64,000 nucleotides of DNA from Cyanidioschyzon merolae (Eukaryota): the NCBI GenBank assembly GCA_000091205.1, contig AP006488.2; one strand, written 5' to 3'. The notes beneath the pieces were generated by a model. The model searched no databases. It was not told the DNA's origin and saw only the letters and a list, made by a program, of their open reading frames with translations. The stretch's first letter is position 1. Every line of letters starts with the position of its first letter. Positions 1-63,253 of the stretch are shown in pieces. The translations under genes and the position numbers were made by a program.

Positions 1-3000
1 GGGCGATGGGATGATCAAAAATGAAGTGCGGTAATCCAAATGGCGCTAGACTCAGTACACTGAGGATCAACGATGACGCATTGCCCAGAGACAGCTGCTC
101 GCGTTTTTGCTTTCGCAACGCCGCTTGCCAGCACCGAAGTACATCTCGAGGCGGCAGAGCACCGGAGGAAATGGGGCTGTTCCAAGCAAGCGCGTTATGA
201 GACTCGGAGGAAGGGTCGTCTTCCCTCAAATTTAAGTACTGCACAGCGTCATGAACACTTAGAAAGCGAAGAAACGGTGTCGGCGTTGCCCTCGAGTCTT
301 CCGACCCTGCCTTCGAGAGATTCGTTTGTTTATCGGTTTCCGTCAAGGAGACACCAAAGATTCGCGGTGCAGCCTGAACTGCAAGCTCAGCAATAGAAAC
401 ACTGCCCAATGAACGCGCATCGACAAGCTCATTTCTCTGAAACAGCTCGGCGAAAAGCCTCTCAAGCAGAGTTTCCACGCCTGGCGTTGCAGCGACCAGA
501 ACCAAGGGCGCTGTGCGGAGCTTGAGAAAGCTCTGCAGAGATTCGGACAACATTAGGTGCTCGAATTTCAAGAAATAATTCACTTCATGAAGGAGCACAA
601 CAACGTATTCTATAGCTTTGCTAGGAACAGTTTGACTATGTTTGGTTAACGGCACCGGTGGCGCTTGAATCCCATGGATTAAAGTGGTATATGGCCGCTA
701 CACCCATCTCCGACTTTAATGGGACACTGCAGAGTTCGTTTTGTTCCTGCCTTTTGGTTTTGCTCAGAATATTTTTAGAAGAGCAGCCTCTAAATTCCAA
801 ATGCAGCAATGTAGGTGTAGAGGTTTATGCGAATGTATTAAGATTCTTTGTGGTCTTTTCGGAATGGCTTCTTCAACATATTTGCGGTGGATTTCGTTGC
901 GCTACAGGGAACAAGATGATTTGGGACGCACTCGAATAGGAGTTTCCAGAATAATAGATATCCCTGTTCAAAACATAAGCATAAGTCTCTAGTTTCTCTG
1001 ATCCGTAAGCGTAGGACGCTCAAATCACGCATTCTTCAAGTTTTCGATCATTCTGTCCCTATGACAACTCGCGGGCGCTGCAAATGTGAACGCTGAATTT
1101 ATGAGGAAACAGAGACTCGACGACGCCCCATGAGAAGTTGTTCGCAAATTCGTGCCGAACCTTCACTGCATTTGTTATGTCAATAATCCATTTCAAATGA
1201 AAGACGAAATCTTACGCCCTTTTTGGCCCTTAACGCCACGGAATTCGACGGCAACATGACAACAATCACAGGATGTGCTTCCAGAGGCTACCGTCCCTTC
1301 TGTTTGAATAAAAAAGCGCCATTGACTCGGACTTGGGTCATCGCGGCAATCGTTTTCAGTGGAGATAGCGACAGCGTTTGCATGAAGGAAACGTATACAG
1401 ATAGATATTTTTCGACTTATCTGCGCTCTATTTTCATTCCGGTTTTCGTTTCATTTAGGGTGACGTCGCGCTCCTAGAATACTTTTCCGAGTGTGAAATC
1501 GCGCGTTTGCGTCTGCGGCCAAGAGAGTTCCTGCGGAGAGCATCGCCCAGAAGAAGCGCGTGCTCGTAAAGTACGCTATCGGGCCTGGAAACAGAGGGAG
1601 CGTTGAGGCAATCCTCATGCACCCCTCAAGAGCAAATACGGAACAATGAAGCCAGCCTTGATGCTCTGCGGGGCGGTGCTCTGACGAAAGCTGTGGTGAA
1701 TCTGTGGGATAACCTCACCGCAGACATCAATCATCGCTGCGAAAGGCGCATCGAGGGTGTGTTCGCGGAATATGAACAAGGCCAGCGAAGCAGAGATCGC
1801 CATTCCCGCTTGTGCGTGAAGCGCATCGGCGAAAGCCGCTAGCTTCGAAATCGGTAATTAAACGCTGCTATCAACATCCTTCGACTACGGACATTAGATG
1901 TGGAAAGACGGAAAAAGCCAAAGTATTCAGAGCAAGAGTTCTGTGTTGAATAAAACCAAAAAGCGTTCTACGAGCAAAGAATTCAAATAAACACCCTGTC
2001 GCAGACGCCTCCAAGCCCTTTTTCCATCGGCCGCCTGCTATAAGTTCCAGTTTTTTCCCAAGCGCACCTCGAGCCTGAGAGGTTGCCCCTTGAAGCGGGA
2101 TCGCGTCAGCTCTGCGGGTCTCGTCTTCAGCACCGAAAATCATCTGATATTGACGCGGCGCTGATGTCTCGGTTCACGAACTCCTCGCGTTTATTGCCGT
2201 TGATGAAACGAGCCAATGCAAAGATTGCGCATATTCGTGCCTTCTGTCCGAAAACAGTCTCGTCATCATTCCGTCAGGCAAGCACCTTCTTTCGTCTATC
2301 TCTTCTCCTCTTATTTGCCTCGTCACTTGCCCTGCTTCGCTCGATGATCAGCGACGGAAGCACTGTTTTCGTTTTTTGTCGAATCCGGGAAGGAGGGGAC
2401 TCCAGAATTCTCGACCTCACTGTCCATACCTCCCACCTGGCTTTATAATTCTCAAAGTGAGCACTTTGAAGGCCCATGCTTTAAACCGCGAAAAAGCATT
2501 TTTTTCAACACACATTGGGGCGGGGCACGATTGAGGTCAAAGTCTTTAAGAGGTAGCTCCGAGTTCGCAAAGGGGGAACTCGGTGGATTCTTTGCCAAGC
2601 GATGCACAGTGCTCTGTGGTCGGAGCACGATGCCTTGCTGCTAGCAAAATTTCCGGCCACAGCAAAACCAAGATCATTTCAGCTCCTCTCCGAACACTTT
2701 TGCACTCTCAAAAGATCACCGATTCTTTCAATCTTTGTAACAGGTGAGAATCTATTACGAAATTAAATATTACTAATAGGGTAAAAGATATTCTGGAAGC
2801 TCGGCCCACACGTCTAATCACATCGATCGCTCATTGTGTCACAATCGAGTTGTCCTAGCGAAGCTAATGAGGGATATTCGAGAATGTCTCACGCTGAAAC
2901 ATCTTCGAGTTCAAGTTCTTCAGGAGCCGAGGGCATTCGGCATTCAACAAAAGCGGTTCTGAGCGAAGAATATATTTAAGTTGCTTTTCAACGTGCGACG

Positions 3001-15721: not shown

Positions 15722-16042
15722 TCACAACATACCAAGCCTTTTGCCTTCGATTGCAACGTCGTTTTGCGCTCGTGCACCTCCCCGTATCCCTTCTGTTGCG
15801 TATGTGTCTGTTTCACCAGCCGCTCCTCTACTAGCTTTGAGCACGTGCCCGTGTTCGTTAGGTGCGAATGTCATGAAGCCTTTATCAATGGGTATTCTTC
15901 GGACCCGGTTCTTGCGCTCGTAGTACGCGTTCACCCGAGGAGCAAAAGAGTAGCGTCTGTGCCCGACAGCTGCTCCAGCACTATTGGCGAGCACCAAGTG
16001 ATATGGCCTGCCGGTCACTTCCTTTCCCATCTCATTGAACAT
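15722..16042 (-). CDS. Possible 3' exon of a ribosomal protein L21e-like gene. The multi-exon structure is unresolved and the upstream exon was not found.
   Basis: GKEVTGRPYHLVLANSAGAAV...RVNAYYERKNRV resembles RPL21e [20 protein letters not shown]...RINVRIEHIKHS. An in-frame TAG 5 codons upstream of the ATG suggests an AG acceptor. The match is weak. Confidence 0.25.
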   Translation of the reverse strand: MFNEMGKEVTGRPYHLVLANSAGAAVGHRRYSFAPRVNAYYERKNRVRRIPIDKGFMTFAPNEHGHVLKASRGAAGETDTYATEGIRGGARAQNDVAIEGKRLGML

Positions 16043-32377: not shown

Positions 32378-32545
32378 ACGCATGCGGTACCGTTGTCAAA
32401 ATTTAAAACGGTAACGAATGTCGGCTCAACTTCCCGTGAGGAGTGCCGCTGCGTGTGGGTACGCTGTCATTCCAGGGGTAGAGAACCTGTTGCAAGCGGA
32501 CGAAACCAGCGCGGTTGCCTCAAATGCTTACCTCGCTTTTTTTCG

Positions 32546-34798
32546 GTTATACTCAAAGCACTGAATTTTGGAACAGCTGTGCTGGCTCACCTTTTATGTT
32601 TTTGTTTGTCTTTCTCTCAGGTCCCTCATAAAAGCAATCCATCCTTTGGGTGCGAGAACGCTCGCGGAAACACCAAAGGCCCTCACTGCCAGCTTGCGAG
32701 CACAACGGCTTCAGTTCTACGAGTGAGTCACTCAGTGGGTTCATCAAGCGAATGAGCTACACGTCGCCTGGCCCTGATCCTGGGGCTCGGGAGCCCAAAA
32801 CAGAACTTATCCAGCGCTACCCCAACGATTGCCTCTTCTTCAGCGCATTCCACTCCATGCGTACGCTGACAATGACTCCAAAACATGCCGCAGGATGTCG
32901 GGTTTCGACACCCTTCATACGAATGGTGATGAAGAGTCACCGATGGAATACGCAGAAGCACGCGGCTATGGGAGGCCTTTGCGCGTCGCATACCTGGTCA
33001 TCGATTCCGTATGGAAACACGAGCTCGTATTCCGCGGGCAACGGACGTTTGCCGCTCTCGATGAGACACGTCCAGCTACGGACGCTCGACATGTGGCTAG
33101 GTACGCCACGAAGGGCATATTGCCGTCCTACACGACGACACAAGCGAGCATGAAGCCACCATGTGCTCCAGTGGCGACCACATCCCGCAGTTGCCACCGA
33201 GCCGCCAAACAGACATGTCCCTTCGACACACCTGATCGTTCGTCGACGCACTTTTGGCTTCTTGGTCCCACTCTCATCTGCCGCGATCTCAGAAGAGATC
33301 GCTGTCCAGTACGCCGTAGGTGCCATCGAGTACACACGCGAGGGCGGCGTTGAGCGGCTCGGCGATCCTGCATACTGGTTCAGGTTCAGAGCAGTCATAG
33401 GCCCCTTGTCGGTTGTCAACCGCCATACAAGCGCTCGCGGATCTATAGACGACGAGTCGTTCGCATCCGTGGACCCGAAAGCCGCAGAACGCCTTCAGAG
33501 CTCGCGCAGCTTCGTTCCTGGCGGATGCTCGCGCAGCTTCTCTAGCTTTGGTGCACCTCGTCCAGCAGCAGCTGTTCAGAGCAGCTGCGCATGCAGAGGA
33601 GCCAGCTGTGCGCATTCCTCGGGGCGTGCTCGAGCGAGCCTTTCCGAGGCACAGTACAGCTGATGCTCTGCACAGAGGATACGATACGGCGTGCTCGTGA
33701 ACTAGCGGAATTGCAAACAAACACATAAACACACTTACTCACATACACATAAACACAAACACACGTTCTAGCGTACCTTGACCTGCACGCTACCGCATCA
33801 GCGAACGCAAGTGCTACAGTATAGGTCCCTGAAGGAATCGAATGAGCACCACTATCCTAGAGCAGCTGCAGTTCCGCGCTGAGCGCTCCATGAGGCGCAC
33901 GCTTTTGATGCCGCATCCTACACTCAGTGGCCGAGAAAAGCGTGACTGATGCAGCGGATTCATGGCGCGTCGATAGAGCTAAACTGCGGAATAGTGGCGG
34001 AGACTGCAGTGGCAGCGGACTCGGAAGCGCTGCCCCAACGCCAGCCAGAGTCGCCCTCGCACCGAGCCAACAAGCTGGCTTTCGCTAGCGCGTTCCGCGA
34101 GTCGGAGAACAAAGTGGCCGATCAACTGCGTCGTTTGGAGGGAGCGTACGGCGTGGAGCACGCTACAGCGCACAGGCGCTTCTCTCCATTTCGCTTGACA
34201 CGAGCGTACGTCGAGTGCAGCGATCGGCTCTGCAGGACGCTCACCGACGCGTTCAGCACACCGTACGCACAGCACGAGCACGAGCACGAGCACGAACTCA
34301 CAACGAAACAGGTAGCGTGGACGAGTGTGAAGCAGTGCCGGACGCTCTAGACGGTGTACGGCAAGCTTGCCGGACGTCCGACGGCGATGCAACTGGACGC
34401 GGCAGGCTCTCTGGGGCGTGACCCCACCCCCCCGGCAGCGACGTACTGTAGGGCTCTCACTCTCCCCGAAACTCGAACGCCAGGCTCAGCGTCTGGAAAT
34501 ATGTCGGGCGTGTGGAGCGTCCAGCGAGTTTGTGCCGAACGAGTTCGCCAACGAATCCACGAGGTCTCAGTGTGGGCGTTGCGGTGAAACGCGACAGACT
34601 ACCGATGCAGCACTATCAGAGGCGAGTTGCCAGGAGAGCGTGTCCAACGGGTTTCCACCTGGAGTTAGACACCGAAATGGTACGTTTCAGGAAACCAGCG
34701 AGTTTGGTGTGTCGTTTATATACACCGGGATCGGTTCTTCTTCGCGGATACTGAACGATAATGGTTTTCAGCTATTCGATGCTAATGAGTACTGGCGT
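32546..34798 (+). repeat. R2 repeat copy 1 (about 2.25 kb, GC-rich, non-coding). Termini are GGTTATACTCAAAG... and ...GATGCTAATGAGTA.
   Basis: Collinear with 39879-42145 and 46168-48423; the ORF track repeats identical ORF sets. Contains a CA-rich low-complexity tract near 33715-33765 and a (CACGAG)n microsatellite. Confidence 0.85.
34272..34296. repeat. (CACGAG)n hexanucleotide microsatellite, about 4 units, inside R2 copy 1
   Basis: Direct reading: cacgagcacgagcacgagcacgaac. The unit count differs among the three R2 copies (4, 7 and 5). Confidence 0.8.
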
Positions 34799-39878: not shown

Positions 39879-41605
39879 GGGTTATAATCAAAGCACTGAA
39901 TTTTGGAACAGCTGTGCTGGCTCACCTTTTATGTTTTTGTTTGTCTTTCTCTCAGGTCCCTCATAAAAGCAATCCATCCTTTGGGTGCGAGAACGCTCGC
40001 GGAAACACCAAAGGCCCTCACTGCCAGCTTGCGAGCATAACGGCTTCAGTTCTACGAGTGAGTCACTCTGTGGGTTTACCAAGCGAATGAGCTGCACGTC
40101 GCCTGGCCCTGATCCTGGGGCTCGGGAGCCCAAAACAGAACTTATCCAGCGCTACCCCAACGATTGCCTCTTCTTCTGCGCATTCCACTCCATGCGTACG
40201 CTGACAATGACTCCAAAACATGCCGCAGGGTGTCGAGTTTCCACACCCTTCATACGAATGGTGATGAAGAGTCACCGATGGAATACGCAGAAGCACGCGG
40301 CTATGGGAGGCCTTTGCGCGTCGCATACCTGGTCATCGATTCCGTATGGAAACACGAGCTCGTATTCCGCGGGCAACGGACGTTTGCCGCTCTCGATGAG
40401 ACACGTCCAGCTACGGACGCTCGACATGTGGCTAGGTACGCCACGAAGGGCATATTGCCGTCCTACACGACGACACAAGCGAGCATGAAGCCACCATGTG
40501 CTCCAATGGCGACCACATCCATCAGTTGCCACCGAGCCGCCAAACAGACATGTCCCTTCGACACACCTGATCGTTCGTCGACGCACTTTTGGCTTCTTGG
40601 TCCCACTCTCATCTGCCGCGATCTCAGAAGAGATCGCTGTCCAGTACGCGGTAGGTGCCATCGAGTACACACGCGAGGGCGGCGTTGAGCGGCTCGGCGA
40701 TCCTGCATACTGGTTCAGGTTCAGAGCAGTCATAGGCCCCTTGTCGGTTGTCAACCGCCATACAAGCGCTCGCGGATCTATAGACGACGAGTCGTTCGCA
40801 TCCGTGGACCCGAAAGCCGCAGAACGCCTTCAGAGCTCGCGCAGCTTCGTTCCCGGCGGATGCTCGCGCAGCTTCTCTAGCTTTGGTGCACCTCGTCCAG
40901 CAGCAGCTGTTCAGAGCAGCTGCGCATGCAGAGGAGCCAGCTGTGCGCATTCCTCGGGGCGTGCTCGAGCGAGCCTTTCCGAGGCACAGTACAGCTGATG
41001 CTCTGCACAGAGGATACGATACGGCGTGCTCGTGAACTAGCGGAATTGCAAACAAACACATAAACACACTTACTCACATACACATAAACACAAACACACG
41101 TTCTAGCGTACCTTGACCTGCACGCTACCGCATCAGCGAACGCAAGTGCTACAGTATAGGTCCCTGAAGGAATCGAATGAGCACCACTATCCTAGAGCAG
41201 CTGCAGTTCCGCGCTGAGCGCTCCATGAGGCGCACGCTTTTGATGCCGCATCCTACACTCAGTGGCCGAGAAAAGCGTGACTGATGCAGCGGATTCATGG
41301 CGCGTCGATAGAGCTAAACTGCGGAATAGTGGCGGAGACTGCAGTGGCAGCGGACTCGGAAGCGCTGCCCCAACGCCAGCCAGAGTCGCTCTCGCACCGA
41401 GCCGACAAGCTGGCTTTCGCTAGCGCGTTCCGTGAGTCGGAGAACAAAGTGGCCGATCAACTGCGTCGTTTGGAGGGAGCGTACGGCGTGGAGCACGCTA
41501 CAGCGCACAGGCGCTTCTCTCCATTTCGCTTGACACGAGCGTACGTCGAGTGCAGTGATCGGCTCTGCAGGACGCTCACCGACGCGTTCAGCACACCGTA
41601 CGCAC

Positions 41606-41648
<43 letters not shown>

Positions 41649-42145
41649 ACTCACAACGAAACAGGTAGCGTGGACGAGTGTGAAGCAGTGCCGGACGCTC
41701 TAGACGGTGTACGGCAAGCTTGCCGGACGTCCGACGGCGATGCAACTGGACGCGGCAGGCTCTCTGGGGCGTGACCCCCACCCCCCCGGCAGCGACGTAC
41801 TGTAGGGCTCTCTCTCTCCCCGAAACTCGAACGCCAGGCTCAGCGTCTGGAAATATGTCGGGCGTGTGGAGCGTCCAGCGAGTTTGTGCCGAACGAGTTC
41901 GCCAACGAATCCACGAGGTCTCAGTGTGGGCGTTGCGGTGAAACGCGACAGACTACCGATGCAGCACTATCAGAGGCGAGTTGCCAGGAGAGCGTGTCCA
42001 ACGGGTTTCCACCTGGAGTTAGACACCGAAATGGTACGTTTCAGGAAACCAGCGAGTTTGGTGTGTCGTTTATATACACCGGGATCGGTTCTTCTTCGCG
42101 GATACTGAACGATAATGGTTTTCAGCTATTCGATGCTAATGAGTA
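39879..42145 (+). repeat. R2 repeat copy 2
   Basis: Collinear with copies 1 and 3. (CACGAG)7 at about 41607-41650 and a poly-C tract ccccc(a)ccccccc at about 41774. Confidence 0.85.
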
Positions 42146-43890: not shown

Positions 43891-44154
43891 TCAGTAAAAC
43901 GAACGAAATCCCGCGACCATGGAGGGTAAACTGAAACCTACTGACAGACGCCTCTCAGCCTTTTTCGACGCGCCGCCTGCTATCGGTTTCAGGTTATGCA
44001 GACGAGCCTCGACCCTCAGAGTCTTTCCCAAGAAGCTGGATCGTTTCAGATCCTCGGATCTTATCGTCAACACCGCACATCTTCTGATACTGATGGCGGT
44101 GTTGAAGTCTCGATTCAGAAACTCCTTGCGTGCATTACCGTTGGTTGAACACAC
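43891..44154 (-). pseudogene. Fanzor/TnpB-like 3' fragment (RuvC-III motif) inside the short element on the minus strand
   Basis: FLNRDFNTAISIRRCAVL...LKPIAGGASKKAERRL parallels the master copy FVNRDFNAAINICRCAVL...LEPIIGGRSKKAGRRL. No upstream RuvC-I or RuvC-II is present. Confidence 0.7.
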
Positions 44155-45410
44155 CGATGCAAGAATTGCTAGAACTCATGCCCTCTGCGATATCATAGTC
44201 TTGTCATCATCGCGTCGCGCACACAATTTTTGTCGACTGTCTCCCTTGTTCTTCGTCTTCTTCGTTACGTGCCCTTCTTTGTTCGATTGTCGGCGGGATG
44301 ACGATTTTTCCGTTTGTTTTCGGCAGCTGGCGATGACGGCCCGCCAGGATCTTGGACTTCCATGTCCTTAACGTGCCCTTGGATATTTTATTTTTCCGAA
44401 TGTACTCGCTCCTGTATGCCCTTAGGTGAGGATCTTCCTGGATGGAATCGATTTTGCGGAAGAAGGATGATACGTGCGTCGGTGTCACCGCCCAGAACGC
44501 TACAGCGATTTGCCCTGTGGAGCGATTATTACATTCCATTACAAAAAAACAGTCAGACGATATGGTAGAACAACAAAAAGTTCTATGCAATGAAAAGCGG
44601 ATCTAGCCCAACAAAATGGGCAAACGCTTGGGCGTAACGAGAATGGTGAAATATCACGTTGTCCAGCAGAAGGACGTCGCCAGGCGTCAGCCAAAATTCT
44701 TCAATGATTCAACGCAGGGTGTGGTATTGTGTAAGCGATCTCTATGAGCGAATTTGAGGCTTCAAGATCAAACCATTCCAACTACCAAAGATGATGGTGT
44801 CGTCGTTCTCTTCCAGTTCGATTGTGTAAACAACGGGTGCCCCGTCCGCGAAAAAGACATGTACGCTCCGAGCGTCTCATCCGAAGCAAGTCCGATCGAC
44901 TGGAAAGAACCTGCGGATGTCGGTGTGCTTCATATCGTCCGCTGAGTTCCAGGAATTCTGCAGCTGAGATTTCAGTGGAAAATGGCCGCGCGTGAAATTC
45001 GGCTCTTTACGACTGTATCCCTGTGTTATCAGGACTACGTGAATCAGCTTGTGGGACAGAGAAACGCCTGTGGCGGCTATTACGGCTGCTTTTGCTTTTG
45101 GTAAGATGACCAACGGGTCGTTGTCTACCATTAACCGCAAGCAGTCTTTAAAAGTATCGGTTTTTGTTGGCACGTGGCACAATTGCTTTCTTTCATTGCT
45201 CCTTAAGTATTAGAGTGCTGTTGTATGACTGATCTGTAGGAGGAATACAGTCCTCCTTGCACTATGCAATAGAGAATATATCCGATAGTCAATTCGTCTA
45301 CGATCTGTACATGACTTTGCGTAGTGATTTCGACCGCTTACTAGAAACTGCGAAAATCCAGGCGGAAACACACAGAGGGACAGGAACCCAATGAAGTTGA
45401 AACTCTTTAA
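43943..45410 (-). mobile_element. Short, internally deleted Fanzor-family element, copy 1 (minus orientation)
   Basis: Nucleotide homology to the 56.4-57.8 kb and 61.8-63.25 kb elements along its entire length. It shares the left-end region (aac ttc att ggg ttc ctg tcc ctc tg...) and the right end GGCTGAGAGGCGTCTG. Its left end abuts the prefoldin start codon. Confidence 0.7.
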
Positions 45411-46167: not shown

Positions 46168-48423
46168 TCGGTTATACTCAAAGCACTGAATTTTGGAACA
46201 GCTGTGCTGGCTCACCTTTTATGTTTTTGTTTGTCTTTCTCTCAGGTCCCTCATAAAAGCAATCCATCCTTTGGGTGCGAGAACGCTCGCGGAAACACCA
46301 AAGGCCCTCACTGCCAGCTTGCGAGCATAAGGGCTTCAGTTCTACGAGTGAGTCACTCTGTGGGTTCACCAAGCGAATGAGCTACACGTCGCCTGGCCCT
46401 GATCCTGGGGCTCGGGAGCCCAAAACAGAACTTATCCAGCGCTACCCCAACGATTGCCTCTTCTTCTGCGCATTCCACTCCATGCGTACGCTGACAATGA
46501 CTCCAAAACATGCGGCAGGGTGTCGAGTTTCCACACCCTTCATACGAATGGTGATGAAGAGTCACCGATGGAATACGCAGAAGCACGCGGCTATGGGAGG
46601 CCTTTGCGCGTCGCATACCTGGTCATCGATTCCGTATGGAAACACGAGCTCGTATTCCGCGGGCAACGGACGTTTGCCGCTCTCGATGAGACACGTCCAG
46701 CTACGGACGCTCGACATGTGGCTAGGTACGCCACGAAGGGCATATTGCCGTCCTACACGACGACACAAGCGAGCATGAAGCCACCATGTGCTCCAGTGGC
46801 GACCACATCCCGCAGTTGCCACCGAGCCGCCAAACAGACATGTCCCTTCGACACACCTGATCGTTCGTCGACGCACTTTTGGCTTCTTGGTCCCACTCTC
46901 ATCTGCCGCGATCTCAGAAGAGATCGCTGTCCAGTACGCCGTAGGTGCCATCGAGTACACACGCGAGGGCGGCGTTGAGCGGCTCGGCGATCCTGCATAC
47001 TGGTTCAGGTTCAGAGCAGTCAAAGGCCCCTTGTCGGTTGTCAACCGCCATACAAGCGCTCGCGGATCTATAGACGACGAGTCGTTCGCATCCGTGGACC
47101 CGAAAGCCGCAGAACGCCTTCAGAGCTCGCGCAGCTTCGTTCCCGGCGGATGCTCGCGCAGCTTCTCTAGCTTTGGTGCACCTCGTCCAGCAGCAGCTGT
47201 TCAGAGCAGCTGCGCATGCAGAGGAGCCAGCTGTGCGCATTCCTCGGGGCGTGCTCGAGCGAGCCTTTCCGAGGCACAGTACAGCTGATGCTCTGCACAG
47301 AGGATGCGATACGGCGTGCTCGTGAACTAGCGGAATTGCAAACAAACACATAAACACGCTTACTCACATACACATAAACACAAACACACATTCTAGCGTA
47401 CCTTGACCTGCACGCTACCGCATCAGCGAACGCAAGTGCTACAGTATAGGTCCCTGAAGGAATCGAATGAGCACCACTATCCTCGAGCAGCTGCAGTTCC
47501 GCGCTGAGCGCTCCATGAGGCGCACGCTTTTGATGCCGCATCCTACACTCAGTGGCCGAGAAAAGCGTGACTGATGCAGCGGATTCATGGCGCGTCGATA
47601 GAGCTAAACTGCGGAATAGTGGCGGAGACTGCACTGGCAGCGGACTCGGAAGCGCTGCCCCAACGCCAGCCAGAGTCGCCCTCGCACCGAGCCGACAAGC
47701 TGGCTTTCGCTAGCGCGTTCCGTGAGTCGGAGAACAAAGTGGCCGATCAACTGCGTCGTTTGGAGGGAGCGTACGGCGTGGAGCACGCTACAGCGCACAG
47801 GCGCTTCTCTCCATTTCGCTTGACACGAGCGTACGTCGAGTGCAGTGATCGGCTCTGCAGGACGCTCACCGACGCGTTCAGCACACCGTACGCACAGCGC
47901 GAGCACGAGCACGAGCACGAGCACGAACTCACAACGAAACAGGTAGCGTGGACGAGTGTGAAGCAGTGCCGGACGCTCTAGACGGTGTACGGCAAGCTTG
48001 CCGGACGTCCGACGGCGATGCAACTGGACGCGGCAGGCTCTCTGGGGCGTGACCCCCACCCCCCCGGCAGCGACGTACTGTAGGGCTCTCACTCTCCCCG
48101 AAACTCGAACGCCAGGCTCAGCGTCTGGAAATATGTCGGGCGTGTGGAGCGTCCAGCGAGTTTGTGCCGAACGAGTTCGCCAACGAATCCACGAGGTCTC
48201 AGTGTGGGCGTTGCGGTGAAACGCGACAGACTACCGATGCAGCACTATCAGAGGCGAGTTGCCAGGAGAGCGAGTCCAACGGGTTTCCGCCTGGAGTTAG
48301 ACACCGAAATGGTACGTTTCAGGAAACCAGCGAGTTTGGTGTGTCGTTTATATACACCGGGATCGGTTCTTCTTCGCGGATACTGAACGATAATGGTTTT
48401 CAGCTATTCGATGCTAATGAGTA
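46168..48423 (+). repeat. R2 repeat copy 3
   Basis: Collinear with copies 1 and 2. (CACGAG)5 at about 47899-47926. Confidence 0.85.
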
Positions 48424-48440
48424 CAGCCTCCGTCACTCTT

Positions 48441-49472: not shown

Positions 49473-52269
49473 TTGTTTGGAGGTACACAGAGCACTTCAC
49501 GTTATCACACAGTTGTTCCCCAGGCAGGGGGTTCACCAGATCACAACGGATTCGCGAAGCAGCATCCACGCTCGAATCGGGAGCTCCGTGCGCCCTCGCC
49601 TGGGGCGAAGGCGCTCCCTGGGCTTTCTCTGACAAGCGAAGCTGACTCCGTGCCGGAACACCGGCCGGCAATGGGGTTGCCTCTGGGTGCCTGTGTCCCT
49701 GTGTGCATAGGATTCTGGAAGGAAAAAAACTTCGACTCTGGGGCGTACGCTCTCCTTGGCCAGAGAAGGTTTGGAAGCGGGGGCCTCTGATGTCGTCCTT
49801 ATCAGCTAGGTGGGAAATCTTTCGAAAATCGATTTGTCTATGAGCATCGATGTTCGTACTGAATCATGCCCATGTCAGACGGAAATGGAATAAGTCTCGC
49901 CTGGCTAGCTCGGACGTACACACTAACGTTTGTATCTCTTCCCACTGCCTTCAATACCAGACGTCGTGAGTTTTTTTCTGTGATTGCGTTCTTTTCCTCG
50001 CTCTTATTCCCTGTTTAGAACACGCCAGTCTCTCTTGGCCAACAAGATCCGTTCTTAGTAGTCGATGTATGTTGATGACGGCTTCAGAGTTCCGATTATT
50101 TCTCTTTCGGCAGCTGCCGACGCGCTGCATGCACAGATGATAGATATGAGTCACGATTCGCTTACAAGATTCATATTATTTTAATGTAGCCTCGAAGCGC
50201 CCTTCGCAGCGGTGACACTTGACCATGGTCAGGTTTTCACATATGCCTACCACCTCACCTACTCGTTCAAGGGCCGCCCTACGCCCTGTAAACGCATACT
50301 CTGTTGCTCGGCTCACGTCCTTGGCTGTTACAGAAGGCTCCGATCGATAACCCGCTCCGATTACGGACCCGGTGCCATACCCTGTGATCAGGGGCTTCAT
50401 CCGCGCGATCCCCTCGGCGGGAACGCTCTCCGCTGCACGTACTCCCTGTTCTGTGCTATAGAGGATTTGTGGAATGCCACGTTGTCCATGATGAAACAAG
50501 TCCCGAAACGAAGGTCGACGCTACAGACCAGATCCAGGAATTTCGATCTGTATATGCTGCTTTCGTGCAAACCGCTGTCGCACATTCCATTAAAAACGAT
50601 TGCTCCGATGGTTAAATTCCGAGTCCGAGACAGGTTCCCATACAAAACAAAGAGTCAGGAACCTTTCGGAGCGTACCCGTTGAGACGCATCACGCTGCTG
50701 TCGACTGCCGTTTCGTCGCTGGCGAAAGGACTGGAGGATTTGTCTTTCCAGTGGACTTGATGACATGTCTTGGCAAGTTCAATGAATACTCAGCATGAGC
50801 TTGTGCACAAGCCATCAGCGGGCATTGTATTATTCCCCCGTCAATGCAGCTGGCAAATTCGCTTCGCCTACTGGTCGCCTTGAAATAGGAAAACCGAAGC
50901 TTGAAGAATGCGTGGTTTGAACGCGTCGTTCGTTGGAGAAGGAGCACTGCGGAGGCCTCTAAGTATGAATGGCATGATGGAATCGGCTGTTTGTCAACTG
51001 CCGCTCATGGTTGTCGAGAAGCATCCCAATTCTCGTGATGTAACAAATTTCAGCGATAGCGAATCGAAGGATCCACAACAGAAAGACGACCGAGAATCCT
51101 AAAACTACACAAGAATCCCTTAGCTCCTACTTCTGCATCTTAAGTGTAGAGGCTGTACGCCTGGAAGAAAGTTCGGAAAAATCTATAGGCAGGAGTATAG
51201 CAAATGGTTCTACTCCTTTTGTTAATCTGATACGGGCTCGGTCCCGACGCACGTTCACGAACGTTGCAGCATTCTCAAGCAGTGCTGCCTTGCGGAACGC
51301 GTGTAGCACGTATTGCCGCTCAATTCCATAAAAAACATAATTGTCTTATTTATGTAGGCGTGTTTTGCCTTGTCCAGAATGACGCACTTGCACGCTGTTT
51401 GCCAACGTGGACAAAGATCGATTTGGACGTGCACGCTATCCAGCGGTCTTTGGAGCTTCGCGCACTGTTTCGGGGGTTTTTCTCAATGACAAAACGTTTA
51501 CATTTACCATGGATTTCAGATTGCGGGATGCATCATGGCTTTTAGGTTAGCATCCATCATGAAGCACCTACCACCAAGCTCCATTACCCATACTTCCTCT
51601 CGGATATTCTGGTCGTTTCGCACGCTCCATCGTGTGCCGAGTGCCTGCCGTGAGCACCCGCCATCGCGCTTAGACCGCTGAAGCAGATGCTGCGCGGAGA
51701 CAGAACGGTTTTGCCATACTACTGTGGGCGTCGGCTCGCGGAATCCTGTATCTGATACGCAATCTCGGCGAATTATCATTCTGGGAGCCTGCAAGCTGCG
51801 CAGTCAGAGGCGCTGTTTGCGACAGCGCAAAGCGATGTAGAAGGGTCCACTAGGACCCGGTCGACGCCCCAATGCGGCATACCTTCTACGAGTCCCAGAT
51901 TAAACTGCATTTCGGACGAGTCGCTCAGACCTTGCAGCGGCATATGTCACTTAAGAAACACGTAGCACCAGCCTACCAGACTAGTCCGGCTCGCGGTGCC
52001 TTCTGCCTAGAAGGTAAACTTTAGACAATACGGGAACATTTGTCCCCTTTGAACGTTAATCGTAGAGGAGGAAAAATATATAAAGAGTCGCAGGTGAATC
52101 CAGAGTCTCTGCTTTTTATTCTAAATAGCGCACTCGATACGCGCACATAGGACATCTGACAGTCACCGGATACGACGTCCATGTCGCCGTTGAAGGGAAA
52201 CGCGATCGTGATCAACAGCGTGTTGTACTGCCGGTAAAGTTGGACTTGCGTTAGAGTCATAGCAATGTA

Positions 52270-54704
52270 TAGTTCTTCAATTCAATTTTGTTTCAGCCTT
52301 CAAGTAAGTATATTCAAGTGATTTTTCGCGAGTTCTGGTAGAAGCGTTCCATGAACGTTCTTTTCCAAAAAAATAAAAAAGGAAAGTTATGGAAGAGCAC
52401 GTCGACAATTGTGGAAGCCTGGTGTCGCCGGCTGGCAGAAAAAAACGAAAAACAGAGCCTATCCCGCAGGAACAGGAGAGGACGAAGAAGCGAAGGCAGG
52501 AGGCCCTACGTGGAAGGCTCCAAAAAAGACAACTGTACGACGAGATGGTGGTGAAATCCTGTCTTCGTAAACGTATCAGGGATCCATACAAGGAAAGGTT
52601 GCGAGACGCTATCAGAAACCTTGTCGATTCGTACTCCAAGAAGGATGTAAAGACATCGTCAGGACTAGCGCATTTGGCGAAGGAGATGTACGAAGATGTG
52701 GCGCATATGGAAACAGTCGAGGGTCTGGGCTAGTTCTTCAACATGACCATGATTCGTCGTCTGATGCTTGGTACAGGGGAATCTTCGACGAAAAAAGAGC
52801 TATTGCAAGCCCTCCGCGAAAACTTCGCGGAATTCCACTTCGAGGGTACTCGATACAGGGGTGACCGGGATATTTACACATGCGGGGCGATGAAGTTCAT
52901 CATGAACGTAAAGAACCATTTGACGATGAACCTCGAAAGTTTCATGATGAGCGCCGTGTTTGCGCTATACCTGGGCATCTCTCGCAAAGGAAAATGAGCG
53001 ATTATCAATGGCATCACGAACGATCGCCAGCATGAAAATGAGGTATAATTTGTCGACAAGAGGGCGTCAAAAGAGAGCACGGATGAAGCTTCTGTGATCC
53101 GTGCGGCTATTCAAGAGCACCGTGCAGTCTTAGGGTTGGTGAATCTAGCAGAAAAGATATCAGCGTTGAAAAAAGATAAGGAAAGATACTATCGCCTCGT
53201 CCTGCGCTATTTTGTGTTTCCGGACCGTGAACTCGAACGCAAGGCAGAGATGAAGCTGAGTGAGGAGACAAAAAAAGAGTGGTAGAGACGGAAGGCTTTT
53301 CTAATGGGGAAGCGCTTCAACGTCGTTCCAATGTGCAACATCAAGTCACATTTCGTGACTATCGACTAAAGAATCCTTCACGGCATCATGAAGGAGATGT
53401 GTCCGGAGTTCGATGTTAGCAGGGAGGAGTTCTCCGGTGAAAACCGGGAGACGTACTGGAAGAATATCTTCAGTTTCAAACGTCTGAGAGTGAGCAAGCA
53501 AAAGTTGTTTACTGGGATGATTGAAACCGATGGAGTAGCCTTGTGTATACACTATCGGCGGTTGAAGAGAGATCGTCCAGTTCCCCCCTCGGCGAACCAT
53601 GAAGATGAGAAAGAGGCGGATCTTGCGACGCAGGAGGTAGAGGATAACGACCTCGTCGTTGGCGTGACGAAGGATGAAGATGAGAAGAAGGAGGATCCTG
53701 CGACGCAGGAGATGCAGGATAACGACCTTGTCGTTGGCGCGACGAAGCATGAAGAAAAGAAGTAGGCGTGCCTTGAGACGAAGAAATTGCAGGATAACGA
53801 CTTTGTCGTTGGCGCGGACCCCGGAAACACAAATATCATCACCATCGCAGCACCGAAGCGTGCAGAAGAATGTACTGACGGCAACTTGCGTCCGAAAGAC
53901 ATGCGTCTTTTGAGGTTCTCGAGAGCGAGATACTATCAAGAATCCGGTATAATGAATGCAAGGAAGAAAATCGTTACGTAGAATGCAGGAATGAAGGATC
54001 ACCTGGAAGCTTTGAGCTAGGTGACAAGTCGAGGAGCGGACTTTGAAGCTTTTCGGAAATTCATGGAAGTTCGCATTGCGCATTGGGATGCGCTGTGGGA
54101 GGAGTATACAAAGCCCCGGCGGGCTCGTTTGCGAATGAATTTGTATTGTGGGAAGCAGCGGGCGTTCGCGAACTTTTTCAGTCAGTTGAGTGCCCTCAAA
54201 GAGGATGAAACTCAGCGGCTAGTAGTGGCGTACGGAGCAGGGCGCTAGATGACCCAAAAAGGGACTACGCCAGCTCCAACGACAAGAACATTCAAAGAGT
54301 GTGCACGGCGTTTTGTTACAATACCGATAGATGAGTTCCGAACGTCCTATACACACCATGAACTGGGATGTACACTTCAGCGAGTGGAGATGGAAAAGTG
54401 TCAGCGGAGCCCTGAGGAAATAGCAAAGTACGGACCACTGACGGAAGAGCAAATGGAAAGGAGGGTGAAAGTTCGTGGACTCCTTGCACTAGTAAGTACA
54501 ACGTCTAATGGCAAGAAACGAACGGAGTTTGTGAACCGTGACTTTAATGCCGCTATCAATATATGCAGATGTGCGGTGCTGGAGAGTAGACCTCCAAGGT
54601 CGACAAGAGTGAACTTTGTTGGACAACCCGTCAAAGTCGAACTATATGAGAATAAATTGGAACCAATAATAGGTGGCCGGTCCAAAAAGGCTGGGAGGCG
54701 TCTG
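52270..54704 (+). mobile_element. Fanzor-bearing transposon, master copy of about 2.4 kb
   Basis: Its left end (ttcaattcaattttgtttcagcc) resembles the left ends of the three short elements (ttcaacttgattttgtttcatcc and similar). Its right end ...GGCTGGGAGGCGTCTG is the exact point where all four copies lose homology. Confidence 0.7.
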
Positions 54705-54842
54705 CACATCAGCTGGAGAGTTCTTCTCCAGGGCCCCGGTCGCCACTACTGTACACTGCTGCCGGTAGCAACAAGTAGCAAAAGTTCAACCGACGAGTCC
54801 ACGGATGGATACTCGGCCAAAAGGTTCAGGTCACCGTTTTAG
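52389..54842 (+). pseudogene. Fanzor/TnpB-like RNA-guided endonuclease gene. It is an 818-codon single frame with nine in-frame stops (TAG at 52731, 53283, 53763, 53979, 54018 and 54246; TGA at 52995; TAA at 53046 and 53367) and no frameshift.
   Basis: All seven ORF-track pieces start at coordinates divisible by 3, checked by hand. KKRK/KKRR NLS-like N-terminus, Ruv[18 protein letters not shown]...C ZnF remnant (IDEFRTSYTHHELGC), RuvC-III VNRDFNAAINICRCAVL. The tail after the right end is read from flanking DNA, as in TnpB. Confidence 0.75.
53616..53830 (+). repeat. 3 x 72-bp in-frame tandem duplication inside the Fanzor ORF (the segment just upstream of RuvC-I)
   Basis: [22 protein letters not shown] / [21 protein letters not shown] / (TAG)[20 protein letters not shown]. 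Only the third unit keeps the GADPG catalytic motif. Confidence 0.75.
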
Positions 54843-56088: not shown

Positions 56089-56369
56089 TAGGAACTTTCC
56101 TCCAATGATCGTGGTTCCTCTCTGAATTGAATACTGATTCACGATCTTCGGGTTCCAGGTCTTTGCTTTGCCAGTTCAGGAAGTACGTAGCATCAAAAAC
56201 TACTGAAGCAACCCACAAACCAGCAAGGAGTGTATATCTCATGCAAGGAACCGGGTGCAGCTATGTGGCTTGTAAACCGAAAATACATGGAGCGTCTTGT
56301 AATGGAGTTACTCCGGTGATATTTTCTATCACGAGCTACGTGTGCGGGCATAAGATTTCGACAAGTCCG

Positions 56370-57775
56370 GATCTTATAATCTTTTAACTTGTTTCTGGTC
56401 CACTCCCTCTGAGTCCAGTCGAATGCGTTCTCGCGGTGAAGAGCAAGCGACCGAAATCACTCTAGGATGTACGTTATAGATCGGAGACGAATTGCTTACG
56501 GGATATGTATGCTTTACTGAGTAGTGCAAGGGGGACAGCACCCCCCGCCCTGCGGCTCATTCGTATCGCAGTTCTCAGATGGTCGGGGGTCATTGAAAGA
56601 AACAAGTAGATGCTCTCAGCGCCAAGAGCTGATACTCTCCAAAGAGCTCTCGGTCTATGGTAGAAAACGACCCATTGATTAGCTTACGGAACGCAGAAGC
56701 GACGATAGTAGTCGCTGTGGGCGTCTCTGTTTCTCAACAGCTTGTTCAATGGTCCTGAAAACACCGGGATACAGTAGCAAAAAACTTTCCACTTCAGTCA
56801 CGACAATATTCCACGGCATTCGCTACTACAATCGAATTCCTGTAACGTCGCGATCTGTATGAAGCACAGGACGTTGATTTGTATTTTCAGCCGATGGGAC
56901 TTCCGTCGGACGAGAAGGTCGTGGGAAATATGGCCATTCGCGGAGCAGGGAGCTCGTTGTATTTAACATCGAATCTGGGGAGAAAGATGACATCATTATC
57001 TGTTCTGATTGCAATGGATTCATTCGACGGCGTCATTTCCACTCGCAGAGCAGGCGCATACAACAGCACCAATCACTTCGTCGAACCACTGAAGACTTTT
57101 TCCCTGAAGTCTGGCGAAGACCCTCTGCTGCACAACGTTGTAATTCACCATTCCGGTTGCGTTCGAGCTTTTGCTGATTCAATCGGGCTAGAGCTGCGTT
57201 TCATTCCATTGTACGCAACGTTGTTTTACCCCATCAAAGGACTGTTTTCTATTGTGAATCGTAATGATCGCTCCACTAGGCGAATCGCTGAAGCGTTCGA
57301 CACACGGTGACACAACGGGGCACATTTCGTCTTTCTTCAGCACGTCCTTCTCCCTCCGGGGAGGTCTCCACCCATGGGTATACACAAGTAGGTTCATTTA
57401 AAAAAATAAAAAATCCAAGGGAGAGTCATGGGCATGGAAGTCGAGGATCCTTGAGGAGCTTTGTTGCCGGCTTCGAAAAAACAAGGAACAAAAATCCTCT
57501 TCTCGCCAACCATCGAGAGAAGAAGAACAAGTGAAGAAGAGGAAGAAGAGGGAGACAGGCAAGAAAATGTGTTTGCTCGACCGTACGACAACGAGATTTC
57601 AGTGGCAGAGAGGGTATGCGTTCTAGGAATCCTCGCATTGATGAGTTCCACCAGCTGCAGTAACCGAGGAATTGACGAGATACGATTTTGTGGAGCAGCC
57701 TCTCAGGCACGAGGTGTGCCTTGATAACCTGGAACCGATAGCGGGCTGCTAGTCAAAGAGGGCTGGGAGGCGTCC
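56370..57775 (+). mobile_element. Short, internally deleted Fanzor-family element, copy 2
   Basis: Collinear at about 75-80% identity with 61800-63253 and with the reverse complement of 43943-45410. Its right end is GGCTGGGAGGCGTCCG. The RuvC-III segment is deleted; remnants are SPTIERRRTSEEEEEEGDRQ and LEPIAGC*SKRAGRR. Confidence 0.7.
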
Positions 57776-58586
57776 GTGACTGGGATTATAAATGCGCTCT
57801 ATTGTTGCGAAACGTTTTCGTGTCACTGACGATACAAGAAATTCGCAATTTCCAGTGCTTCGATGACTGCGTTGTGTATTTGGCAAGCTGCTGCTTGTCA
57901 GTTCCACGCGTTTACTTCTGAAGCGATCGTTGCGTCAGCTGCGAATCCCGTTGAACACATTTTTTGTGCTGCTGAGAACATGTCGCTCCTAAAAAGGAAA
58001 CTTGTTTTCGTTCTTGAGGAACTCCGAACCCAGCGGAGCCAAAAGTTTCCTACCGCCATTCATGTCGAATAAGCCTAAAAAACAGACGACTTCGGTACGG
58101 GTGCCAAGGAGCGGATACCCTTACCGATTTGATCAGACTCGACTACCTGACGCATACGTCGAAGAATGCAGTCAGCCTGCACAGTTCAACTCGGGGACGG
58201 CGAAGGGTTCCGAGGCGTCAGCGCCTCTCCATCGGTTAGCACACAACAGGGGACCTCTCTATCAATTCCAGCATTTATGAGCGATCTCAGAATCAGCGCA
58301 TCAATTCCATTTCGAGACTGAGCGAGAGCGGCAGTAAACCGTTCTTGAGTCGCCCCATTTCGCCAAAATCGCATGCTTGCGCATGCGCGCGAAGCCCTGA
58401 AAAGACAGTACCGAAACTCACGCTCGTCTGTTCCATTGGGCCGTATGAACACGTTATTGAGAAACCGCTAGATAGCAGGATTTTCTGCACCATAAAGCAA
58501 AACAAGTTTTTTCATTAAATAGCCAGTACGCTCACTCGTTCTACGGGTCACTGCGTAGCGCCTGCCCCCGGCGATGCACGGGTGCC

Positions 58587-61799: not shown

Positions 61800-63253
61800 T
61801 GAACCTAATCTTGTGTTTCAACTTGATTTTGTTTCATCCGCACTGTGGTGTATAGAAGGAGACAGAAACCACGATGCAATGTATCGCATATATTGTAGAC
61901 GAATGCCTGTGGGATATACTCTGTACTGAACAGTACAGGGAGGACTGCATTCCTCCTTCAGGTCAGTCATGCCGTCGTACGCAGATGGTTGCGGAACACT
62001 GCAAGAACAACGTATATGCGGTCTGCGCTAAAAACCCCATATTTTAGAAGACTTCTTGCCGTCAATGAAAGGAACCGAACCGTTGATCACCGTACGGAAC
62101 GCAGAAGCGACGAAAGTAGTCGCCACGGGCATCTCTTTTTCTCAACAGCTTGTTCGAGTCGTCCGGAAAACACTGGGATACGGTCGCGAAAAATGTTCTA
62201 GTCGAATCACGAACACTTTCTACCAAAATAGCGACGACAGCGTTCATAGAACGTCACAATCCGTGTAAAGCCGAGGGAGGTCGGTTTGTATCTTCAGTCG
62301 ATGAGACTTTATTCTGACGAAACCGTCGAAGCGTACAGGGGTATTCGAGGTGAAGGATCCCGTTGTACGTACGCTTGAACTCGAATAGAACGAGGACATT
62401 ATCTGTTCTAGCTTTAGTGGATATGTTTGGTGGCCTCAGTTTCGCTCGTAGAGAAGGCGCATAGAATAGCACCAATTTTGCCGAATCATTGAAGGCTTTT
62501 CCCCAGACGTCTGGCGACTTCCTTTAGCTGGACAACATGGCATTTCCCCCTTTCGGTTACGTTCAAGCTTTTGCACATCGTATCGGGCTAGAGCTGCTTT
62601 TCATTACTTAGTAATTTCCGTTGTTTTACCGCATCGGAGGAGTCTTTTCCATCGTGAATCGTAATGATCGCTCCACTGGGCGAATCGCTGAACCGTTCAG
62701 CACACAGTGAAACAACGGGGCACATGTCGCCTCTCTTCCGCAAGTCCATCTCACTCCAGGAAGGTCCTGACCCAGGAACATAAACAAGTGCGTTCGTTTG
62801 AAGCAACAGAGATCCAAGGGAAAGGTATGGGCGTACAAGTTGAGGATCCTGGTGTACCGTCATTGCCAGGTTCTCCAAAACAACGAAGAAAATCATCTTC
62901 TCGCCGATAATCGAGCGATGGAGAGCAACGCACGACGAAGAGGAGGATGACAATGAGTAAGGCGAGAAGAGGTGTTTACCCCACAGGACGACAACGAGAC
63001 TGTAGTGGCGTATAGGGCACGAGTTCGAGGAATCCCGGCAAAGATGAGTTTCACCATCGCCGGTAAATGCAGGGAATACGTAAATCGAGAATTCAACGCT
63101 GCTATAAGCACCAGACGATGTGCGATGCTGAAGAATAGACCTGAGGCGCTGACATGATCTAATTTTGTAGGGCAGCCTCTCAGGGTCGAAGTGCACAAGG
63201 AGCGGCTGACGCCGATAGCAGGATACCGGTCGAAACAAACTGGGAGGCGTCTG
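61800..63253 (+). mobile_element. Short, internally deleted Fanzor-family element, copy 3. It retains a RuvC-III remnant.
   Basis: Shares the left-end region and the subterminal hairpin with the other copies. The 3' coding remnant is EYVNREFNAAISTRRCAML...NFVGQPLRVEVHKERLTPIAGYRSKQTGRRL. Its right end is GGGAGGCGTCTG at 63242-63253. Confidence 0.7.
62972..63253 (+). pseudogene. Fanzor/TnpB-like 3' fragment (RuvC-III and C-terminal tail) inside short element copy 3
   Basis: VNREFNAAISTRRCAML followed by an in-frame stop, then NFVGQPLRVEVHKERLTPIAGYRSKQTGRRL. Collinear with the master copy 54530-54704. Confidence 0.7.

Follow-up and report, generated by a model that had tools for sequence, protein, structure and literature searches.

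Position 54704 of the window, the 64,000-nucleotide stretch of Cyanidioschyzon merolae 10D DNA analysed here, probably marks the point in a decayed CMe-1A Fanzor1 transposon at which one kind of constraint gives way to another, with a tail and the right end of the element lying further 3' (a reading to which we assign a probability of roughly 0.6). Upstream of this position, the sequence would have been kept by selection on the Fanzor protein. Downstream, a tail of ~85-100 nt would have been kept as structure, not as sequence, and would comprise three hairpins, the first of which (H1) overlaps the last nine codons and the stop; CACUACUGUACAC would lie unpaired between the second (H2) and the long third (H3). 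Distant subfamilies would be alignable only where protein constraint and a 16-nt motif act, and the apparent 'break' of the subfamilies at this motif would follow from that limited alignability. The tail is the best omega-RNA candidate of the element, placed where Fanzor omega-RNA scaffolds are known, and a guide would be read from the DNA past H3 (~54788-54799) and not from 54705.

By its sequence, the element is a TnpB-like Fanzor (Fanzor1), an assignment that the original prediction had also made and that is borne out by the match of its profile to a solved Fanzor 1. The master copy is a decayed transposon, CMe-1A, that occupies ~51478-54798. Its protein-constrained part is a pseudogene on the plus strand (52335..54704), delimited by translation, homologues, profile and codon conservation, which translates in one frameshift-free reading frame with ~10 in-frame stops. 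The motifs GADPGNTN (RuvC-I), DEFRTS and VNRDFNAAINI (RuvC-III) occur in this order, their columns being invariant in the family alignment A8, and the last constrained Fanzor residues are ...GRSKKxGRRL. The master protein has 35 homologues, of which the close ones are 60-79% identical; P0028, used as a tblastn query, spans 52335-53582 of the master, and at the nucleotide level the master is 79-85% identical to related loci. The family profile matches Parasitella parasitica Fanzor 1 (PDB 9cf0-9cf3) with E = 1.5e-14, the match being split into a RuvC-I stretch and another over the C-terminal RuvC/Zn region. Fanzor 1 was reached by this profile only; P0001 alone gave no match in the PDB (phmmer). 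Similarly, Pfam returned no match for the master conceptual protein and its close homologues; PF07282 is present in distant homologues.

No intact Fanzor ORF is present in the window. In addition to its ~10 stops, the master has lost the family stop codon, and the other four window copies are rich in stops and frameshifts. All of the window copies are dead: four are deletion derivatives, and the master is a pseudogene in which H3, too, is damaged. Metagenome relatives carry far fewer stops and have open frames of up to 752 aa. The master and its tail are an ordinary member of an already known system. Exact matches at the protein level tie the window to C. merolae 10D. CMe-1A was described from C. 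merolae as an element of ~3 kb with a single Fanzor1 ORF, ~80% identity between copies, a separate 5' part of ~635 bp and no visible terminal inverted repeats (TIRs) (PMC3627910), all of which agree with the master, which was matched by this description and not by consensus sequence. The ends, target-site duplications and class of CMe-1A were left undetermined in 2013, before omega-RNA was known; here, in contrast, the element is followed at its 3' side into 85-100 nt of structured tail that finishes in a hairpin, and a TE-N2-like module is found after T-runs and in either orientation.

This module forms the 5' part of the master (TE-N2_CMe-like, 51478..52113, plus strand), where it directly follows a T-run, and is delimited by metagenome homology and a left-end HMM. 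In several independent copies from metagenomes, homology with the master begins at 51478-51498, and the HMM matches 51477-51643 (E = 8e-48). In many others, the shared sequence sets in only at 52115-52150, which places the module junction at ~52113-52150. Both the junction and the extent of the module fit the statement of Bao & Jurka that the 5' 635 bp of CMe-1A is TE-N2_CMe (PMC3627910). A run of T5-9 precedes the TE-N2-like module in 12 of 13 independent copies, and the Fanzor core carries at least 3-4 alternative 5' modules. A blastn search of the window with the master 5' region found no other match. An arrangement of head-to-tail units, with left-end-like sequence after the B-type deletion copies described below, was considered and rejected, as the sole match of the left-end HMM in the window is the left end of the master itself.

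The last codons under protein constraint (A-G-R-R-L) lie in the 16-nt motif GGCTGGGAGGCGTCTG (54689..54704, plus strand), which is conserved between the two subfamilies better than any other stretch. The original prediction was correct that the motif is shared, and its frequency is far above chance: allowing up to 3 mismatches, the window contains 6 matches against 1.98 expected, a count reached by none of 100 shuffles. Five of these are real copies (54690+, 57762+, 63239+, 43945- and 2002-), one more than the four first reported, the additional copy being that at 2002-. The copies had been described as identical or nearly so. Their identity to the master is in fact 67-68%, over the last 140-200 nt only, and near-invariance among the window copies is confined to the last 14-16 nt. 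Conservation at the third codon positions of AGG CGT CTG within the motif is 0.86-0.93 in family A, and between subfamilies these positions hardly vary; the motif can pair with an upstream AGACG to form a small hairpin or, in many copies, with a downstream AGACGYYUC. Weak tblastn matches at 34.1, 41.4 and 47.7 kb belong to an unrelated 2.25-kb triple repeat and are not Fanzor.

The alignments identify the four non-master copies as old internal-deletion derivatives of the B type, three of which have ~1.4 kb in common. The copy at 56337..57776 (plus strand), ending GGCTGGGAGGCGTCCG, retains the 5' module, the beginning of the ORF and its final ~85 codons and has lost a further 70 nt. The copy at 61813..63253 (plus strand), ending AACTGGGAGGCGTCTG, was delimited by alignment to the full-length copy L069, its positions -1437..-429 aligning to the 5' module and ORF start and -257..0 to the Fanzor C-terminus. 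A third, ending GGCTGAGAGGCGTCTG, was placed by alignment at 43945..45385 (minus strand), and the fifth window copy is a 3' fragment (2002..2432, minus strand) ending GGCTTGGAGGCGTCTG, found by motif match and alignment.

In the original prediction, the transposon would end at ...GGAGGCGTCTG, the scaffold would lie in the last ~200 nt of the ORF and the guide would come from unique flanking DNA at +1. Several features of the B-type copies favour this quite improbable reading. Local alignment among the window copies falls from z = 10-25 before the motif to z ~0 after it, and the same collapse right after the motif is seen at three more B-type ends, taken from metagenome loci; moreover, no stretch is more conserved than the motif, a common trait of transposon termini, and the deletion derivatives all retain the last ~250 nt up to it. 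However, all of eight B-type ends share (T/A)GG at +5..+8, with copy-specific hairpins just after the motif, and under permissive scoring some pairs of B ends reach z = 3-4 in this region, whereas stringent local alignment of the B tails found no similarity after the motif. Furthermore, the B-like copy L026 (at 1270) carries a full tail. In the alignments, the deletion copies thus lose nearly all similarity at the motif and keep faint traces beyond it, and they may yet end at the motif or very near it.

For the master, the same reading is refuted. The copies had been said to diverge completely after the motif, which holds for the window copies but not for the element itself: independent-copy homology does not stop at 54704/54705 and continues for 83-100 nt in the master family. 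Among 44 independent relatives from hot-spring metagenomes, per-column conservation is 80-98% to ~+57 past the motif and ~0.8 to +83..+88, and then drops to ~0.35; homology past the motif is also present in three loci. The final nine codons, the family stop and H1-H3 all lie within this tail of ~85-100 nt. Hence ...GGCGTCTG, proposed as the right end of the master, is followed by homology, the family stop codon and the hairpins, and the end lies ~83-95 nt further on, probably at the foot of H3 (~54787-54798). A pair of copies that are 99.6% identical diverges right after GGCGTT, and approximately half of the copies extend the stem by 7-18 nt. Support for a copy-specific extension is modest, with own pairing at -8.7 kcal/mol and cross pairing at -7.9 kcal/mol (p = 0.015), and the distribution is bimodal. 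Beyond ...GGCGTT or the stem extension, conservation falls to background. Asymmetric terminal inverted repeats were suspected by eye only (GTTTACA versus GTGTACA).

This position of the right end changes what would be read as guide. The sequence proposed as the master guide, CACATCAGCTGG..., is internal to the element, consisting of the last ORF codons and the 5' arm of H1. The ORF that was described as reading through the right end is real (54249..54842). However, it does not cross that end at the motif; it reads on because CAG has replaced the family TAG at 54729-54731, a secondary change in a pseudogene already interrupted by ~10 in-frame stops. Within the window, neither the guides first proposed nor the revised ones have a second match (up to 4 mismatches in 18 nt).

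Codon-position conservation defines the nature of the breakpoint. Conservation at the three positions is 0.93/0.94/0.83 before the boundary and 0.81/0.84/0.83 after it, and positions 1 and 2 exceed position 3 up to 54704 but not beyond. Because the codon-type pattern ends at precisely 54704, the breakpoint represents a change from protein constraint to structure-only constraint. The last nine codons (54705..54731, plus strand) therefore lack protein-type constraint and contain H1, in which 54713-54719 pairs with 54725-54731. The stems of H1 differ by copy (AGACG/CGTCT, GGAGA/TCTCC, GGACA/TGTCC, AAA/TTT), with 82-84% of cells paired. Covariance-model alignment places next a remnant of H2 (GGC...GCC; GGCG...CGCC in the family), followed by the conserved unpaired CACTACTGTACAC (54732..54756, plus strand). 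The family H3 is a hairpin of 11-19 bp ending ...GAAAGGCGTT, often with 7-18 nt more of closing stem. In the master, H3 is degenerate (54757..54798, plus strand, including the probable right end at 54787-54798), as judged from the family H3 and the alignment to the covariance model R1. This model covers the master as far as 54779, the inner 21 H3 positions being deleted, and the master was aligned by eye with ends of the L069/L070 type (GCAGCAAC...AAAACGTT).

The R1 model matches the master tail at 54689-54779 with 62.6 bits (E = 5e-16), and in 323 kb it finds 48 full-length tails, each directly after a Fanzor 3' end and none solo. The possibility that the tail is a separate target repeat hit by Fanzor insertion was rejected on this ground, with 48/48 matches directly following a Fanzor 3' end. 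Across H1-H3, 70-73% of cells are paired against 38-49% with slid partners. Changes on both sides occur in 18-21 pairs of H1-H3, a count reached by 0-1 of 500 shuffles, whilst shuffles give only moderate support for the share of paired cells and for the covariation score (12-42/500), and the structure was picked by eye from the same, related sequences on which it was evaluated. The excess of G.U over A.C cells (138 versus 41) indicates that the fold forms on the sense strand. Individually, 10 of 12 tails fold with z of -1.9 to -4.2; the master's own tail, with z = +0.36, is not more stable than shuffles. When the complete MAFFT alignment (-129..+100) was given to RNAalifold, the consensus was poor (-6 kcal/mol), since the hairpin registers and indels are not aligned there, and the helices were therefore set by hand. 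Rfam gave no match, either for the window at the gathering threshold or for two good loci at an E-value threshold.

The original prediction had placed the scaffold in the ORF 3' end, with a constant part ending ...GGCGUCUG. In the ~130 nt of ORF upstream of the motif, RNAalifold found only invariant short stems with 0-1 compensatory changes, and third-position conservation over the last 130 nt of the ORF rises slightly, from ~0.80 to 0.85-0.87. Conserved hairpins with compensatory changes do exist at the 3' end of the element, as was expected there, but they lie downstream of the proposed boundary and not upstream of it.

A guide-free alternative, in which the tail would be no more than a Fanzor mRNA 3' UTR with hairpins for termination, processing or stability, appears very improbable indeed. 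The tail does begin at the stop codon, on the sense strand, and has a conserved single strand that contains UGUA. Nevertheless, the conserved region ends exactly where the homology of independent insertions ends, which ties the tail to the transposon terminus, and it is found at the 3' end of 48/48 copies. Moreover, known Fanzors use exactly the same segment as guide-RNA scaffold. In these systems, the omega-RNA or fRNA is placed downstream of the ORF and up to the right end, beyond which it continues (PMC10432273, PMC10530073). SpuFz1 of Spizellomyces punctatus (PMC10432273) and viral and eukaryotic fRNAs (PMC10530073) likewise have a conserved structured segment of ~75-200 nt from stop codon to right end on the sense strand, and at Fanzor1 omega-RNA loci ORF-less or deleted copies keep the 3' segment ('ghost' loci), as they do here. 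The present tail differs from these loci in that 30-nt TIRs are absent, the element ends in a long hairpin and the candidate scaffold, known here from sequence alone, overlaps the last nine codons. In IS200/IS605 TnpB (as in ISDra2), a RuvC nuclease similarly lies beside the right end, with a guide expected beyond that end and a subterminal hairpin. However, the IS605 scaffold lies largely in the tnpB 3' coding region, as the original prediction assumed, whereas the structured part here is downstream of the protein-constrained region.

It is possible, if on the unlikely side, that the tail hairpins are signals for single-stranded-DNA transposition of the Helitron2 or IS200/IS605 type, with a transposase acting in trans and no RNA scaffold. 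In support of such a role, a long hairpin lies at the extreme 3' end, G.T pairs are tolerated on one strand and near-identical copies exchange terminal modules. The preference of the TE-N2-like module for T-runs, together with deletion derivatives that keep their 3' ends, also recalls the non-autonomous Chlamydomonas Helitron2-type elements CRe-1/2/3, in which Fanzor1 occurs with a 3'-terminal hairpin, frequent 5' or internal deletions with intact 3' ends and a T-run preference (PMC3627910). Unlike in those elements, a RepHel gene, asymmetric TIRs and variable target-site duplications were not demonstrated here, and the T-run link concerns the TE-N2-like module and not the Fanzor core. In addition, a CTRR-type end is absent, neither Rep/helicase nor Y1 transposase was seen in the examined loci, and H1 and H2 lie well inside the element beside the stop codon, where solved Fanzors have omega-RNA. 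The two roles are not mutually exclusive: in the preferred reading of the tail as an omega-RNA candidate, the terminal hairpin may double as a DNA signal for the enzyme that moves the element. A more elaborate proposal, which we regard as unlikely though conceivable, is that the motif and three-hairpin tail represent a new, TIR-less Fanzor1 omega-RNA type, whose last stem also acts as the terminal hairpin of a transposon that moves as a single strand (rolling-circle or HUH-type) and is accompanied by a TE-N2-like partner targeting T-runs. In this proposal, the invariant GGAGGCGUCUG would be a processing or anchoring site between mRNA and guide RNA, and the T-run would be the TAM.

The junction at 54704 corrects the position at which guides are to be sought in the only described red-alga Fanzor family; in the case of the master, if not of the other copies, experiments on the four guides first proposed would be aimed at sequence inside the transposon. 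CMe-1A also gains a defined 3' architecture, open since 2013, of stop codon, H1, H2, conserved single strand and terminal hairpin. The tail is a biologically expected feature of a known system and provides an omega-RNA candidate from a thermo-acidophilic alga, whose intact relatives are abundant in hot-spring metagenomes and may be of interest for heat-tolerant compact nucleases.

Sequence comparison identifies the master copy (~51478-54798, plus strand) as a Fanzor1 transposon. On translation, it presents a single continuous reading frame from ~52335 to 54704, containing ~10 in-frame stop codons and no frameshifts, that retains Fanzor/TnpB hallmarks including VNRDFNAAINI. A large protein collection contains 35 homologues of the encoded protein, with identities of 60-79% for the close members and Pfam PF07282 in the distant members, and the family profile matches the solved Parasitella Fanzor 1 (PDB 9cf0; E = 1.5e-14). 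This transposon family is already catalogued as CMe-1A (Bao & Jurka 2013), with ~150 copies, ~3 kb long and ~80% identical to the consensus, lacking TIRs and of undetermined TSDs and unknown class; the first 635 bp, at the 5' end, correspond to another element, TE-N2_CMe (PMC3627910). The nonsense codons of the master derive from Trp, Glu and Ser codons. That 2.4 kb of sequence, in a copy differing by ~20% from its relatives, has acquired stops but no frameshift can be reconciled with neutral decay in which indels are rare. Just upstream of RuvC-I, the ORF also contains a tandem array (53590-53816) of three ~75-nt units, 76-84% identical, which encodes acidic sequence and varies in unit number among relatives (proteins P0006 vs P0007). 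Another Fanzor-like remnant, heavily decayed and belonging to a different subfamily, lies at 15628-16663 (minus strand; 25-33% amino acid identity to the master, tblastn E ~1e-9). A 2.25-kb segment occurring three times at 98-99% identity (32543-34792, 39880-42145 and 46168-48424; 6.3-7.3 kb spacing) bears no relation to Fanzor, and the weak matches that tblastn gives within it are spurious.

The original prediction placed the right end of the element directly after a 16-base motif (54689-54704), at a breakpoint common to four near-identical copies. The motif is real and non-random, but occurs in five copies, the fifth lying with a Fanzor C-terminal fragment at 2002-2432 (minus strand). Near-invariance is restricted to the final 14-16 nt, and identity to the master is 67-68%, over the final 140-200 nt only. 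Within the window the breakpoint stands, with local-alignment z among copies dropping from 10-25 in the 110 nt that precede the motif to ~0 in the 110 nt that follow it; as the right end of the master it does not. Three contigs encoding close homologues align with the master beyond the motif, to 54756-54764. A scan of metagenome sequence, using the last 82 aa of the protein as query, yielded 79 loci, reduced to 44 independent insertion sites, whose column conservation is 0.8-1.0 through +57 (nt past the motif), ~0.8 to +83..+88, where the consensus reads ...GAAAGGCGTT, and ~0.35 further out. By comparison with ends of the L069/L070 type, from metagenome relatives, the master probably ends at about 54787-54798, and the 'guide' predicted from 54705 is internal transposon sequence.

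Conservation at codon positions 1/2/3 is 0.93/0.94/0.83 in the last 45 nt before the boundary and flat thereafter (0.81/0.84/0.83), so that 54704 marks the end of protein-level constraint and the motif, on these alignments, is the last protein-constrained segment. In the family, nine more codons follow the motif before the ORF stops at a TAG (+25..+27). Because this triplet is CAG in the master (54729-54731), the master ORF runs to 54842, overlapping the start of the translocator gene. The predicted read-through exists, but it results from a mutation secondarily acquired by a pseudogene. Four ORF products in the window exactly match Cyanidioschyzon merolae 10D proteins (BAM79496-BAM79507), including the triose-phosphate/phosphate-translocator-like protein BAM79507.1 (54805..56088). 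The probable right end lies ~7-18 nt upstream of its annotated start codon (54787-54805), and the element hence occupies the immediate 5' region of this gene.

Alignments of family members reveal a structured tail beyond the motif. Its first hairpin, H1, overlaps the stop codon and reads AGACG-UUU-CGUCU in most copies, GGAGA/UCUCC in the master and GGACA/UGUCC or AAA/UUU in others; H2 has a GGCG...CGCC base and a variable top; an unpaired, highly conserved strand, CACUACUGUACAC, and a long terminal hairpin, H3, complete the tail. H3 takes one of two forms, ACGUCGUUCGA-cuu-UCGAACGGCGU or AACGUUUUU-cuuuu-GAAAGGCGUU, and its stem is extended in about half of the copies by 7-18 nt after GGCGUU, often ending GGUG. 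With helices specified by hand, the paired fraction of cells is 70-73%, and it falls to 38-49% if partners are displaced by 1-3 columns. Both sides change in 18-21 of 30 pairs, equalled by 0-1 of 500 shuffles; the remaining shuffle measures are moderate (5-42/500). G.U cells outnumber A.C cells (138 vs 41), so the fold is sense-strand-specific. Of 12 tails folded individually, ten gave z-scores from -1.9 to -4.2, while the master's own tail folds no better than its shuffles (z = +0.36). R1, a covariance model of motif and tail, was run on 323 kb of loci and on the window; it gave 48 full-length matches in the loci, each directly after a Fanzor 3' end and none solo, and matched the master at 54689-54779 (62.6 bits) with the inner 21 H3 positions deleted. 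These comparisons show a sense-strand structured tail joining the motif to the point at which independent insertions diverge. A conserved 3' structure, as predicted, is therefore found across the family, with compensatory changes in H1-H3, but downstream of the boundary; upstream of the motif, where the scaffold had been placed, all the stems that RNAalifold proposed were short and invariant, with 0-1 compensatory changes.

Three further copies (56337..57776 and 61813..63253, plus strand; 43945..45385, minus strand) have ~1.4 kb in common. In alignments with L069, a full-length metagenome copy, their first 1 kb (5' end) corresponds to the 5' module plus the start of the ORF, and their last ~250 nt match the Fanzor C-terminus, which identifies them as internal-deletion derivatives of an older subfamily, 'B'. 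In the four B copies of the window R1 recognises the motif alone (9-13 bits, E = 0.03-0.3), and stringent alignment past the motif finds no similarity, even to L026 at 1270, a B-like metagenome copy with a complete tail; three further B-type ends from metagenome loci lose similarity at the same point. Traces nevertheless persist beyond it: (T/A)GG is present at +5..+8 in each of the eight B-type ends, and in several of them a copy-specific hairpin comes next (GGGTA/TACCC, GGCTG/CAGCC, GTCTA/TAGAC). An ACTGATC-like motif recurs near +46..+58, and when scoring is made permissive some of the pairs attain z = 3-4 (control mean 0.24). These traces are read as those of a structure-only tail turned over in old copies, although the B copies could instead end within a few nt of the motif.

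The terminal hairpin may also, or alternatively, serve as a signal for transposition in single-strand DNA. Consistent with this, its type differs between near-identical copies, an associated TE-N2-like module, present in both orientations, follows T5-9 runs, and several of these traits are common to Helitron2-borne Fanzor1 elements in Chlamydomonas. The module (ATGACAAAACGTTTAC...) is preceded by the run in 12 of 13 independent copies (window ~51470-51480; L003, L007, L011, L015, L019, L020, L031, L042, L043, L054, L073, L074) and abuts, in either orientation, the point where the Fanzor core begins at its 5' side (TTCTAAAAAT joined to CGCGCTC). The module thus resembles an independent element that targets T-runs, in a manner recalling how Helitron2 chooses its targets. 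L039:3800 and L045:916 are 94.6% identical upstream and carry different hairpin versions after CCACTACTG, which suggests that 3'-terminal modules have been exchanged. In alignment A7 the alternative 5' modules number at least three or four. The 'class 3' 5' module (L072, L009, L024, L044, L080, L035, L082; A7 columns ~185-196) also contains, ~45 nt before the shared core, the 9-mer GAGGCGTCT of the 3' motif, which could be chance or a recognition sequence repeated at both ends.

Fanzor fRNAs run downstream of the ORF, reading out past the right end (PMC10530073). By analogy with this established biology, the motif and H1-H3 would constitute the omega-RNA scaffold, with the guide beginning beyond H3. 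The prediction of a Fanzor with a structured 3' RNA candidate holds in kind and not in placement. The motif is conserved at synonymous sites and can pair with AGACG on either side, which suggests that it functions at the RNA level, perhaps as an anchor or switch. The omega-RNA candidate would represent a further case of a known system, in a family that is itself already catalogued.
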